From Escherichia coli O157:H7 (GTDB lineage Bacteria; Pseudomonadota; Gammaproteobacteria; Enterobacterales; Enterobacteriaceae): a stretch of DNA of 64,000 nucleotides. The notes beneath the pieces were generated by a model. That model was not told where the DNA came from. It made no database searches and saw only the letters and a program-made list of their open reading frames with translations. How positions within the stretch are numbered: the first letter of the stretch is position 1; each line of letters begins with the position of its first letter. Below, piece by piece: positions 4,379 to 25,786 of the stretch. Both the position numbers and the translations under genes were made by a program. The stretch lies in the NCBI RefSeq assembly GCF_013167455.1, contig NZ_CP038328.1. One strand, written 5' to 3'.

Positions 4379-5569
4379 GTGACCACCCGACAGCATTCGT
4401 CGTTTGCTATTGTTTTTATCCTTGGCCTGCTGGCCATGTTGATGCCGCTGTCGATTGATATGTATCTGCCCGCGCTACCGGTAATTTCAGCGCAGTTTGG
4501 CGTACCGGCGGGCAGTACGCAGATGACCCTCAGTACTTATATTCTGGGCTTTGCGTTGGGGCAGTTAATCTACGGGCCGATGGCAGACAGCTTCGGGCGT
4601 AAGCCGGTGGTTCTTGGCGGTACGCTGGTGTTTGCCGCCGCCGCGGTGGCGTGTGCGTTGGCACAAACCATCGATCAGCTGATTGTGATGCGTTTCTTCC
4701 ACGGGCTGGCGGCGGCTGCGGCCAGCGTGGTTATCAACGCTTTGATGCGTGATATCTACCCGAAAGAAGAGTTCTCGCGGATGATGTCGTTTGTCATGCT
4801 GGTGACGACCATTGCACCGCTGATGGCACCGATAGTTGGCGGCTGGGTGCTGGTGTGGCTGAGCTGGCATTACATCTTCTGGATCCTCGCCGTGGCGGCG
4901 ATTCTGGCTTCGGCAATGATCTTCTTTCTGATCAAAGAAACCTTACCACCGGAGCGTCGCCAGCCTTTTCACATTCGTACCACTATTGGTAACTTTGCGG
5001 CGCTGTTCCGTCATAAGCGTGTCCTGAGTTATATGCTGGCCAGTGGTTTCAGCTTTGCCGGGATGTTCTCGTTCTTAAGCGCCGGACCGTTTGTCTACAT
5101 TGAAATTAACCACGTCGCGCCGGAAAACTTTGGTTATTACTTTGCACTAAACATTGTTTTCCTGTTCGTGATGACCATCTTTAATAGCCGCTTCGTCCGC
5201 CGTATTGGCGCGTTAAATATGTTCCGCTCGGGGTTGTGGATACAATTTATTATGGCAGCGTGGATGGTCATCAGTGCGCTGCTGGGTCTGGGATTTTGGT
5301 CGCTGGTGGTTGGCGTTGCGGCGTTTGTGGGCTGCGTGTCGATGGTGTCATCCAATGCGATGGCGGTCATTCTTGATGAGTTTCCCCATATGGCGGGAAC
5401 GGCATCTTCGCTGGCAGGAACCTTCCGTTTTGGCATAGGGGCAATTGTTGGCGCATTGCTTTCTCTTGCGACCTTTAACTCTGCATGGCCGATGATTTGG
5501 TCAATTGCATTCTGCGCAACCAGCTCCATTCTCTTCTGTCTGTACGCCAGTCGGCCGAAAAAACGGTGA
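4379..5569 (+). CDS. bcr: Bicyclomycin/multidrug efflux MFS transporter (GTG start)
   Basis: 396-aa hydrophobic 12-TM ORF; GTG at 4379 preceded by caggag RBS; 27 bp downstream of rsuA. Confidence 0.9.
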
Positions 5570-5583
5570 TCTATTGCACAACG

Positions 5584-5608
5584 AGGAAGCTAAAAGGCTT
5601 CCTTTGTT
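5584..5608 (+). terminator. Rho-independent terminator after bcr
   Basis: aggaagc-taaaag-gcttcct stem-loop followed by ttgttg. Confidence 0.55.
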
Positions 5609-5901
5609 GATGCATGTCAACCACAAATCTATCATTCCCCCGATATATGTTTATTTTATGTAAAATCAATTTATGTAAAAAGTCACATCATTGTAGTTAA
5701 AAAGGTTGAGTTAGATCGCAGAAACGGGTACATATAGCCCCGCAAACGTGACCACGCCCGCAGATATTACTTAAATCAGAGCCATAGAGGCCACGCAGGC
5801 GAGGCATCAATCTTTACGATCTGTATAAAGACGGATTGTTGATGATGTGTTAAAATTGATGTAAACAAATTGTGAAGTAAATGTGCTTCCGGGGAAAATA
5901 A

Positions 5902-6246
5902 GTGACTTCATTACAACTCTCAATCGTCCATCGACTGCCGCAGAACTATCGCTGGTCTGCTGGTTTCGCAGGTTCGAAGGTTGAACCGATTCCGCAAAAT
6001 GGACCGTGCGGTGACAACAGCCTGGTGGCGCTTAAATTGCTTAGCCCGGATGGTGATAATGCATGGTCGGTGATGTATAAACTAAGCCAGGCGTTAGGCG
6101 ACATCGAAGTTCCATGTTCGGTGCTGGAGTGTGAAGGTGAGCCGTGCCTGTTTGTAAATCGCCAGGACGAGTTTGCTGCAACATGCCGATTGAAAAATTT
6201 TGGTGTGGCAATTGCCGAACCCTTTTCAAACTACAATCCTTTTTAA
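5902..6246 (+). CDS. yejG: Uncharacterised protein YejG
   Basis: 114-aa [21 protein letters not shown]... recognised as YejG. Confidence 0.85.
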
Positions 6247-6249
6247 GCG

Positions 6250-7839
6250 TCAGCTCAACGCCAGTAGCTGACGCGTATACTCCTGCTGCGGTGTGGCAAA
6301 CACGCGCGCGCACGGTCCTTGTTCCACTACTTCCCCTTGTCGCAGTACGATAACCTGATGACATAACGCGCGGACAACGTGCAAATCGTGGCTGATAAAC
6401 AAATAGGCCAGTTGATGCTTTTGTTGCAATGATTTCAATAGCGTCAATATTTGCGCCTGTACCGTTTTGTCGAGTGATGATGTCGGTTCATCAAGTATGA
6501 TCAGCGAGGGCTTAAGAATTAATGCCCTGGCAATCGCAATACGTTGTCGCTGACCACCAGAGAACTCCGCCGGATAACGGTGGCGTGTTTCAGGATCTAA
6601 TCCCACTTCATGCATCACGTCTATCACTTGTTGTTCGCGTTGTGCGGCAGAAAGCGTCGGCTGGTGAACCCGTAAGCCTTCCTCAATAATCTGCAAAACG
6701 TTGAGTCGTGGGTTGAGCGAGGAGTTTGGATCCTGAAATACCACCTGAATGCGATGACGAATAGGTAACAGCTGGCGGCGATTTAAATTTTGCAGTGGCT
6801 GACCGTCAAAGATGATGCTGCCCTGAGAATTAATCAGTCGCAGCAGCGCCAGTCCCGTCGTGCTTTTCCCGGAACCGGACTCGCCCACTAAACCCAGTGT
6901 TTCACCCGCTCGTAGCGTAAAACTGATGTTTTTCACCACCACATTATGATCCACAATGCGCTTCAAAATCCCTTTGCGAATGGGGAAGGCAACCTGAAGC
7001 TGTTCAACATCCAGCAACGTTGAGGCAGGTTCTGGCAACGGCACTGGATCGCCTGACGGTTCACTGTTGAGTAGCTTTTGTGTGTAAGGATGAGTGGGTG
7101 AGGCAAATAGCGTAGCGGCGTAATTTTGCTCGACACAGCGACCGTTTTGCATTACCGCCACGCGGTGGGCCAGTTTTCTGACAATGCTGAGGTTATGAGT
7201 AATAAACAGCATGCCCATATTCAACTCGCCTTGCAGTTCGCGCAACAGCTGTAAAATCTGCGCCTGGACAGAGACGTCCAGTGCGGTGGTCGGTTCATCG
7301 GCAATTAATAATTCCGGTCGCGTTAACAGCGCCATCGCAATCATCACCCGCTGGCGTTCGCCGCCGGAGAGCTGATGCGGATAATCTGTCAGCCGTTTTG
7401 CCGCCTGGCGGATACCAACGCGATCAAGGCAGTTAAGAATTTCGCCACGAGCCGCTTCCCGACGCATCCCGCGGTGGAGTGAAAGCACTTCATAAAGCTG
7501 TTTTTCCAGGGTATGCAATGGATTTAACGACACCATCGGCTCTTGAAAAATCATGGCGATCTTATTACCGCGTACACCGCGCAACGTTTGGTCGCTGGCA
7601 TGAAGCAGCGATTCGCCATGAAAACGAATATCGCCGGAGAGATATTCAACCGGCGGGGAAGGGAGCAGGCGTAAAATTGACAGCGCGGTAACGCTTTTGC
7701 CTGAACCTGACTCACCCACCAGCGCCAGCGTTTCGCCAGCCTCAATCTGTAGTGAAACATCATTGACTACTGTACGTACGGTTTGCTGATGGCGAAAACC
7801 CACCGACAAATCTTCAATCGCTAACAGAGTTTGCGTCAT
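6250..7839 (-). CDS. yejF: ABC transporter ATP-binding protein with duplicated ATPase domains (YejABEF peptide/microcin C uptake system)
   Basis: Two Walker A motifs (GESGSGKS twice) and two LSGG signature motifs; start placed at MTQTLLAIEDL (ATG 7837-7839) rather than the 545-aa ORF start. Confidence 0.9.
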   Translation of the reverse strand: MTQTLLAIEDLSVGFRHQQTVRTVVNDVSLQIEAGETLALVGESGSGKSVTALSILRLLPSPPVEYLSGDIRFHGESLLHASDQTLRGVRGNKIAMIFQEPMVSLNPLHTLEKQLYEVLSLHRGMRREAARGEILNCLDRVGIRQAAKRLTDYPHQLSGGERQRVMIAMALLTRPELLIADEPTTALDVSVQAQILQLLRELQGELNMGMLFITHNLSIVRKLAHRVAVMQNGRCVEQNYAATLFASPTHPYTQKLLNSEPSGDPVPLPEPASTLLDVEQLQVAFPIRKGILKRIVDHNVVVKNISFTLRAGETLGLVGESGSGKSTTGLALLRLINSQGSIIFDGQPLQNLNRRQLLPIRHRIQVVFQDPNSSLNPRLNVLQIIEEGLRVHQPTLSAAQREQQVIDVMHEVGLDPETRHRYPAEFSGGQRQRIAIARALILKPSLIILDEPTSSLDKTVQAQILTLLKSLQQKHQLAYLFISHDLHVVRALCHQVIVLRQGEVVEQGPCARVFATPQQEYTRQLLALS

Positions 7840-24606: not shown

Positions 24607-24844
24607 TGTTCATGTTCTGTGCATCCCGTCACAAATTCCTCGCTTTTGTAATTCAGGCATTTAATCGCATTTTGTGAGCCTGCTCAAATCTGCCCGCTTT
24701 GCCTCTCTGGCGGCAATTTACTTTACGTAAAACATGCATACTATGAGCACATGTTTAAATATGAACACATGTTTAAACCGTCTTTGCAGTATCTATATCC
24801 TTGTGGATTGACAGGGTTGGTAATTTTTTACCAGAGGACGTGCT

Positions 24845-25786
24845 ATGCGCGAAAAGGATTATGTCGTAATTATAGGCTCGGCGAATATTGATGTCGCCGG
24901 ATATTCACATGAATCATTAAATTATGCGGATTCAAATCCAGGTAAAATAAAATTTACGCCTGGTGGGGTAGGGCGCAATATTGCACAAAACCTGGCGTTG
25001 CTGGGTAATAAAGCCTGGCTACTGAGCGCCGTAGGCAGTGATTTTTATGGCCAATCGCTGCTAACGCAAACCAATCAATCTGGCGTTTATGTCGATAAAT
25101 GCCTGATTGTGCCGGGAGAAAATACGTCGAGCTATTTATCATTACTCGATAATACCGGTGAAATGCTGGTTGCTATAAATGACATGAATATTAGCAACGC
25201 TATTACAGCTGAATATCTCGCACAGCACCGTGAATTTATTCAGAGGGCAAAGGTCATTGTCGCGGACTGTAATATCAGTGAAGAGGCACTGGCATGGATT
25301 CTGGATAATGCTGCCAACGTACCCGTATTTGTCGATCCGGTTTCCGCGTGGAAATGCGTCAAAGTACGCGAGCGATTAAGTCAAATCCATACTCTCAAGC
25401 CAAACCGCCTTGAAGCGGAAACCCTGAGTGGGATTGCGCTGTCAGGGCGTGAAGATGTGGCAAAAGTTGCTGCCTGGTTCCATCAACATGGCCTGAACCG
25501 ACTGGTATTGAGCATGGGCGGCGACGGCGTTTATTACAGCGATATCAGCGGTGAAAGTGGCTGGTCTGCGCCGATCAAAACCAATGTTATTAATGTTACC
25601 GGAGCGGGCGATGCCATGATGGCGGGACTTGCTTCGTGTTGGGTAGACGGAATGCCGTTTGCCGAATCTGTTCGTTTCGCACAGGGATGTTCGTCAATGG
25701 CGCTCTCCTGTGAATACACCAATAACCCCGATTTATCGATTGCCAACGTTATATCGTTAGTGGAGAACGCAGAATGTCTGAATTAA
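24845..25786 (+). CDS. psuK: Pseudouridine kinase (PfkB family)
   Basis: 313-aa ORF MREKDYVVIIGSANIDVAGYS...; overlaps psuG by 13 bp. Confidence 0.9.
   Translation: MREKDYVVIIGSANIDVAGYSHESLNYADSNPGKIKFTPGGVGRNIAQNLALLGNKAWLLSAVGSDFYGQSLLTQTNQSGVYVDKCLIVPGENTSSYLSLLDNTGEMLVAINDMNISNAITAEYLAQHREFIQRAKVIVADCNISEEALAWILDNAANVPVFVDPVSAWKCVKVRERLSQIHTLKPNRLEAETLSGIALSGREDVAKVAAWFHQHGLNRLVLSMGGDGVYYSDISGESGWSAPIKTNVINVTGAGDAMMAGLASCWVDGMPFAESVRFAQGCSSMALSCEYTNNPDLSIANVISLVENAECLN

Follow-up and report, generated by a model that had tools for sequence, protein, structure and literature searches.

A conserved pair of direct repeats upstream of yejG as a probable part of an ArcA operator

The repeat pair and the promoters of yejG

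Two copies of the word TTTATGTAAAA (tttatgtaaaa) stand close together in the spacer between bcr and yejG, raising the question of whether they form a site for a regulatory protein, an element of a promoter, or only a by-product of AT-rich sequence. We examined this question in a stretch of 64,000 nucleotides of Escherichia coli O157:H7 DNA, hereafter the window. Both copies are exact, at 5655-5665 and 5670-5680 of the + strand, and their spacing is 15 bp when counted start to start, as the original prediction stated. The spacer does lie upstream of yejG and is AT-rich (local G+C 0.25-0.28), although its length is 332 bp, from the bcr stop at 5569 to the yejG GTG at 5902, rather than the 330 bp originally given. 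The repeats, the gene and its two promoters are arranged as follows.

5655 to 5665, + strand: copy 1 of TTTATGTAAAA, with the core ATGTAAAATC at 5658-5667, which is DR2 of the published ArcA box yejG2
5670 to 5680, + strand: copy 2 of TTTATGTAAAA, with the core ATGTAAAAAG at 5673-5682, which has a strong ArcA DR score
5706 to 5742, + strand: promoter P2, with the -35-like hexamer TTGAGT at 5706-5711, a conserved -10 region TACATATAGC at 5729-5738, and its start at 5742
5848 to 5862, + strand: promoter P1, with the extended -10 TGtTAAAAT at 5848-5856 and a primer-extension start at 5862
5902 to 6246, + strand: coding sequence of yejG, the regulated gene (ORF list and RefSeq annotation)

The repeat pair is more than a chance occurrence. 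When the spacer was shuffled 5000 times with its dinucleotides preserved, 10 shuffles contained an exact direct repeat of 11 nt or longer inside 30 nt (P ~0.002), and shuffling its AT-rich core gave 4 of 5000; the whole 64-kb window holds one other such close-repeat locus, while the mean for shuffled windows is 0.23. Both copies share the core ATGTAAAA, a 9-bit ArcA direct-repeat (DR) element, and a third copy, AATTGATGTAAA, is found at 5854-5865 with a match of 11/12. The spacer matches O157:H7 genomes with 100% identity; K-12 MG1655 departs from it at a single base (5879) with no indels, and 5425 of 5426 complete E. coli genomes contain it. At its bcr end, a probable bcr terminator hairpin lies at 5583-5606 (AGGAAGC-TAAAAG-GCTTCCT, followed by TTTGTTG); a terminator scan did not call this hairpin, because its rule requires more T than the tail contains.

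The window's one other close exact repeat lies in the fruA-psuK/yeiC spacer, where CACATGTTTAAA occurs twice, 18 bp apart, at 24748-24777, about 70-100 bp upstream of an ORF that starts at 24845. The word TTTACGTAAAA is found near this pair, at 24722, and a short distance upstream are two published CRP boxes, TGTGCATCCCGTCACA and TGTGAGCCTGCTCAAA.

Two yejG starts were mapped by primer extension at 2,276,299 (P1) and 2,276,419 (P2) of U00096.2 (Chung et al. 2013; dPeak, PMC3798280). Coordinates were transferred from the K-12 annotation as window position = 5902 + (2,276,259 - U00096.2 coordinate), and the mapping was verified by sequence: the ArcA site at 2,276,282-2,276,325 reads TTGTTGATG...GAAGTG, which is exactly window 5836-5879, and the P1 start is therefore 5862. 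The extended -10 of P1 is kept across the alignment described below as TGtTAA(A/T)AT. Several other features surround the two promoters. A conserved GATC (5714-5717) lies within the P2 spacer, and the P1 leader carries, at 5871-5893, a conserved short hairpin-like GAAGT...GCTTCC directly 5' of the yejG GGGG Shine-Dalgarno. An RpoH-holoenzyme genomic SELEX peak falls at P2 (2,276,452, window 5709), with an intensity of 3.1 against a cut-off of 3.0, and a weak sigma-32 ChIP-chip signal lies near it (2,276,466, window 5695); from these two signals, therefore, P2 may be readable by both sigma-70 and sigma-32. As a candidate, the sigma-32 reading was set aside, since both signals are at or near the cut-off and the -10 region is without the C-run of the consensus. 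Within yejG itself, a predicted GalR operator GCGGAATCGGTTCAAC is located at window 5980-5995 (U00096.3 2,278,144-2,278,159), and a Cra ChIP-exo site has also been reported inside the gene.

Conservation of the spacer and what it says of several alternative readings

We scanned species-representative genomes for YejG, which gave 80 loci (including Escherichia, Salmonella, Citrobacter, Kluyvera, Klebsiella, Kosakonia, Enterobacter, Leclercia, Mangrovibacter and others), and aligned their spacers with MAFFT. Most loci carry a TGTAAA pair exactly 15 bp apart upstream of yejG. Over 81 Enterobacteriaceae species, a 95-bp block at 5647-5741 is highly conserved, with a mean information of 1.56 bits, on a par with codon positions 1 and 2 of yejG (1.60 and 1.69 bits, with 0.81 bits for position 3). 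The region of P1, 5836-5901, is conserved as well (mean 1.34 bits), and variable zones occupy 5621-5646 (mean 0.46 bits) and 5745-5835 (mean 0.51 bits). The conserved block stops at 5741, that is, at the mapped P2 start (5742). Inside it, the invariant cores TGTTT, ATGTAAAA, TGTAAAAAGTCAC, TTGTAG, AAAAAGGTTGAGTTAGATC and GGTACATATAGC are separated by variable linkers almost without indels, and this alternation, as read from the alignment, is characteristic of a promoter that carries sites for proteins. Of 5425 E. coli genomes, 5274 have the block at 99% identity or higher; RefSeq annotates no feature on 5647-5741. The original prediction named lack of conservation in orthologous spacers as the finding that would count against it; that refutation fails, because the repeats are conserved there.

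These data bear first on the suggestion that the locus acts as a UP element or through intrinsic curvature, or is a chance AT-rich repetition, in each case with no sequence-specific protein. The local sequence is indeed A/T rich (G+C 0.25), and an A-tract adjoins the -35 hexamer of P2. Nevertheless, the UP-element reading fails because the position is wrong: the repeats lie at -87 to -62 relative to P2 and, relative to P1, at about -207 to -182, so that neither promoter has them in its -40 to -60 zone, which leaves the earlier proposal of a UP-like element unsupported. Curvature is disfavored by the distances between the A-tracts, which at 15 and 22 bp are out of helical phase, and chance by the shuffle value of P ~0.002 and by invariant cores with variable linkers, the pattern expected of protein-binding sites. 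The further proposal, that nothing more than AT-rich low-complexity sequence is present, is refuted by the conservation together with the shuffle test, and we regard this whole group of explanations as very improbable.

A second possibility is that the repeats lie in a 17-codon ORF (5647-5700, MFILCKINLCKKSHHCS) and specify a recurring Leu-Cys-Lys there, or that they belong to a structured RNA. A period of 15 nt preserves the reading frame, and the ORF can be read in E. coli, Citrobacter and Salmonella. In many genera, however, it is truncated to 1-14 codons or lengthened to 25, it begins now with ATG and now with TTG, and its third codon positions are as conserved as the others; moreover, the block 5647-5741 lies upstream of the mapped P2 start. 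Because stops come early and the ends vary in many genera, the small ORF was rejected. When each strand of 5640-5745 was folded, no excess stability emerged (z 0.30 and -0.49), and searching 5400-6400 against Rfam (E up to 1) returned only a sub-threshold chance match to a eukaryotic lncRNA model. A coding or structured-RNA role for the repeats is thus scarcely credible.

A third candidate arises from a conserved sequence on the bcr side of the block.

5607 to 5620, no strand assigned: FNR-consensus-like box TTGATgcatGTCAA, directly 3' of the bcr terminator

This box matches at 9/10 or better in 65 of the 81 species, 41 of which have the perfect TTGAT-N4-ATCAA, and its centre is at -128.5 of P2. 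Its distance to DR1 and the conserved block is fixed at 41-42 bp, though the intervening sequence is unconserved. The repeats might accordingly fall in the initial transcribed region or the -10 zone of a third, anaerobic FNR-dependent promoter with a class II start near 5655, a reading that gains from the conservation of the box at a fixed distance from the block and from a sigma-70-like TTGATG-17-TATCAT predicted at 5607-5635. Against it, such a promoter would be without a conserved -10 at 5643-5649 (0.1-0.9 bits), and the only sigma-70 binding events and starts found, two of each, are those at 5742 and 5862 (Chung et al. 2013; PMC3798280). TTGATG-17-TATCAT, which is also quoted by Shimada et al. 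2014, was the only + strand match of our sigma-70 scan in the spacer; it was rejected as a promoter, being without a mapped start and its TTGATG being the left half of the FNR-like box. Placement of the repeats in a third promoter is therefore improbable in our estimation.

Probable ArcA elements at the repeats and the competing regulator readings

ArcA is a response regulator whose phosphorylated form represses aerobic carbon-oxidation genes at low oxygen. The features that bear on its binding upstream of yejG, in addition to the two repeats, are these.

5647 to 5656, + strand: ArcA DR1 ATGTTTATTT, 11 bp upstream of the copy-1 core, which together with DR2 makes a canonical ArcA box
5694 to 5703, + strand: ArcA-DR-like element TAGTTAAAAA, scoring 10.8 bits and not listed by Park et al.
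5836 to 5879, + strand: ArcA site yejG1 over P1 (Park et al. 2013, Table S4), at -26 to +18 of P1, holding AATTGATGTAAA as DR3

The supplements of Park et al. 2013 (PMC3798270) place two ArcA binding regions upstream of yejG. The first, yejG1, has a ChIP-seq enrichment of ~8 and four DRs over 2,276,282-2,276,325, with published Ri values of 8.6, 9.7, 9.8 and 5.3 bits (Table S4, PMC3798270). The second, yejG2, has its ChIP-seq peak centre at 2,276,488 (window 5673), a weak peak with an enrichment of 1.9, seen in replicate 2 only and lying inside a ChIP-chip enriched region (PMC3798270). Its ArcA box scores 17.6 bits, with the predicted site ATGTTTATTTTATGTAAAATCAATTTATGTA at window 5647-5677 and published Ri values of 8.0 bits for DR1 and 8.5 bits for DR2 (Table S4, PMC3798270); from the coordinates of this entry, copy 1 is therefore DR2 of the published box. 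In that study, extra elements were searched only at ~10-12 and 22 bp; a 1.4-bit "DR3" was assigned at 10 bp, and copy 2 and the 5694 element were not called (PMC3798270). The core ATGTAAAA recurs as DR1 of the published ArcA sites at fadI, fadH, yigG and rsd (PMC3798270).

Expression data point the same way. The same study counts yejG among 85 operons called directly ArcA-regulated, reports an 11.9-fold increase of yejG in an arcA mutant under anaerobic conditions, an effect not attributable to the upstream as opposed to the P1 site, and finds anaerobic sigma-70 occupancy at yejG significantly reduced (PMC3798270). In a Salmonella Typhimurium arcA mutant yejG is 2.9-fold higher, and the gene is known for strong anaerobic repression and for induction by acid and at glucose exhaustion. 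Published work has thus shown that ArcA occupies the spacer in vivo, that yejG is under its repression and that the elements at 5647 and 5658 constitute a bona fide ArcA box.

To score individual elements, we rebuilt the 10-bp ArcA DR matrix from 132 elements of published two-DR sites (r = 0.97 against the published values). On the + strand, the elements of the upstream cluster score 7.3 bits (5647), 9.1 bits (5658, copy 1), 9.1 bits (5673, copy 2) and 10.8 bits (5694), and those of the P1 cluster 8.1, 10.1, 9.6 and 8.1 bits. The 5694 element occupies -48 to -39 of P2, sharing bases with the A-tract by the -35 hexamer, and its distance to the copy-2 core is 21 bp. Matches of at least 7 bits occur in the window at 1.46 per kb per strand, and the + strand of the spacer has eight where 1.6 are expected, a number reached in 0 of 5000 shuffles. 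Base composition accounts for part of this signal, because 85 of 5000 shuffles of the AT-rich 71-bp core reach its four matches of at least 7 bits. The elements at 5647 and 5658 have the same orientation and are 11 bp apart, as in a canonical ArcA pair; their best-box score is 16.4, a value that 119 of 5000 shuffled AT-rich cores attain. Across the 81 species, all four upstream elements stand at fixed spacing, and scores of at least 6 bits are kept at 5647 in 89%, at 5658 in 100% (81/81), at 5673 in 86% and at 5694 in 81%.

On this evidence we put the probability that the repeats are functional ArcA elements at roughly 0.7. The original prediction of a regulator-binding site is supported by the strong ArcA DR core, by the presence of copy 1 in a published ChIP-seq site and by the conservation of both copies across genera. 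In the mechanism that we propose, the words would serve as same-orientation half-sites for phosphorylated ArcA (ArcA-P). The upstream cluster would comprise four ArcA-type elements, with starts at 5647, 5658, 5673 and 5694, reaching from -95 to -39 of P2; over P1 lies a second cluster, stronger and also of four elements, that contains the third copy of the word. The upstream operator probably has four elements rather than two or three, and copy 2 and the 5694 element would likewise serve ArcA-P, paired at a distance of about two helical turns. ArcA-P bound to the upstream cluster would shut P2 by covering the alpha-CTD/A-tract region by the -35 hexamer, and it would also cover a CRP-like box at -62.5 whose left half is formed by bases of copy 2, an anti-activation, while the stronger downstream cluster would occlude P1.

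Copy 2 lies 15 bp from DR2, off helical phase relative to the documented 11/22-bp (10-12 or 22) spacings, and its distance to the 5694 element is 21 bp, roughly two helical turns. Copy 2 and the 5694 element have decayed together in Siccibacter and in the Klebsiella oxytoca group, which is compatible with their acting as a pair, as judged from what are only about two independent events. Position 4 of the DR is A in 80 of 81 species for copy 1 and in 75 of 81 for copy 2, where ArcA prefers T, and this near-invariant A may point to an additional constraint.

These observations could also be taken to mean that a regulator other than ArcA reads TGTAAAA at a fixed 15 bp and that the likeness to ArcA elements is secondary. 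The 15-bp spacing is invariant and TGTAAAA almost so, including position 4, and copy 2 is off-phase for ArcA. Known consensuses include GTAAA-N5-GTAAA for CpxR and TGTAAA-N6-TTTACA for TyrR. However, when the consensuses of CpxR, TyrR, IHF, DnaA, NarL and GadE were compared with the locus by eye, none fitted both the conserved bases and the spacing, the patterns of CpxR, TyrR and IHF mismatching one or the other. For ArcA, moreover, binding in vivo and an effect on expression have already been recorded at this locus (PMC3798270), and we consider a different reader of the 15-bp pair quite unlikely.

A stronger competitor to ArcA for copy 2 is suggested by the bases that follow it.

5672 to 5687, no strand assigned: CRP-box-like 16-mer TATGTAAAAAGTCACA, matching 8/10 including G4 and C13 and overlapping copy 2

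This box consists of copy 2 plus the adjoining GTCAC(A), with its centre at 5679.5, or -62.5 of P2. The GTCAC right after copy 2 is almost invariant (1.6-2.0 bits), lies outside the ArcA DR and is not explained by ArcA. Class I CRP sites are centred at -61.5, -71.5, -82.5 or -92.5 of the start, and the observed centre is 1 bp from -61.5, within the uncertainty of start mapping. Copy 2 may therefore be mainly the left half of a class I cAMP-CRP site (TaTGT-N6-TCACA) for P2, similar to that of lac P1, with its identity to copy 1 incidental. The box is kept at 8/10 or better in 59 of 81 species, reaches 9/10 in 9 species and reads TGTGT-N6-TCACA in several genera. A genomic SELEX study of CRP names the yejG-bcr spacer as a target, yejG rises 2.9-fold at glucose exhaustion together with fad genes, and CRP sites embedded in ArcA sites have been described, for example at paaA (Park et al. 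2013; PMC3798270).

Several findings nonetheless stand against a primary CRP role. The boxes predicted by the authors of the SELEX study lie elsewhere, as the reverse complements of 5565-5580 and 5705-5720; the centre is at -62.5, where -61.5 is canonical; a single base pair within the box is deleted in three species; and 8/10 matches are expected once per 2.4 kb by chance. Furthermore, a CRP site would account for neither copy 1 nor the conserved 15-bp spacing. Assignment of copy 2 mainly to CRP is thus a real possibility that we nevertheless think doubtful, and it can plausibly coexist with ArcA binding. As for the two SELEX-predicted boxes themselves, the one at 5565-5580 (reverse complement TGTGCAATAGATCACC) overlaps the bcr stop and is poorly conserved beyond close relatives, and that at 5705-5720 (reverse complement TGCGATCTAACTCAAC) lies inside the P2 core and matches at 7/10 in 73 of 81 species.

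The ArcA and CRP elements might also be combined in a composite redox/carbon switch, in which bases of copy 2 serve both an ArcA half-site and a CRP box's left half, at about -62.5, and ArcA-P competes directly with cAMP-CRP. The dual reading, or a third protein, would then keep the 15-bp spacing and the invariant A, and the FNR-like box may join the same nucleoprotein complex. We offer this as a speculative scheme and regard it as unlikely in this full form.

Comparison with known systems

The repeats invite comparison with the sites of the OmpR/PhoB family (PhoB pho boxes, OmpR F and C boxes, and PhoP boxes), which are head-to-tail repeats read by winged-helix dimers, as proposed here. For these sites too the 15-bp spacing is a problem. 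Within the block, TGTTTA-N5-TGTAAA (5648-5664) also has a resemblance in sequence to a PhoP-type box. In a Shigella phoPQ mutant, yejG is 2.7-fold higher.

Class I CRP promoters such as lac P1 (centre -61.5) share with P2 a TGTGA-N6-TCACA box at 8-9/10 about 62 bp upstream of the start and an A-tract separating that box from the -35 hexamer. Unlike in those promoters, the box here is a candidate, its centre is 1 bp off, and the published box predictions lie elsewhere. With paaA, an ArcA site with an embedded CRP site, the yejG spacer shares the overlap of a CRP-type box and an ArcA element.

The closest counterparts are the multi-repeat ArcA-P sites described by Park et al. 2013 at icdA, acs, astC, paaA, phoH and trxC. 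The yejG cluster differs from these in that the second identical word lies 15 bp off rather than at 10-12 or 22 bp, in that the cluster is upstream of P2 (-95 to -39), leaving the -10 hexamer and +1 uncovered, and in that the in vivo enrichment is weak. It shares with them 10-bp same-orientation elements of the (A/T)TGT(T/A)A type, arranged as an 11-bp core pair plus extra elements over or beside the promoter of an ArcA-repressed gene. This very site is already known from the 2013 ArcA binding study, and its class is that of the multi-repeat ArcA operators. What is new here is minor, namely copy 2 and the 5694 element as candidate DRs, the deep conservation, and a possible overlap with CRP. 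The repeat can be annotated as part of the upstream ArcA operator of yejG and has little meaning beyond annotation, and the additions may help the dissection of yejG control or of ArcA site architecture.
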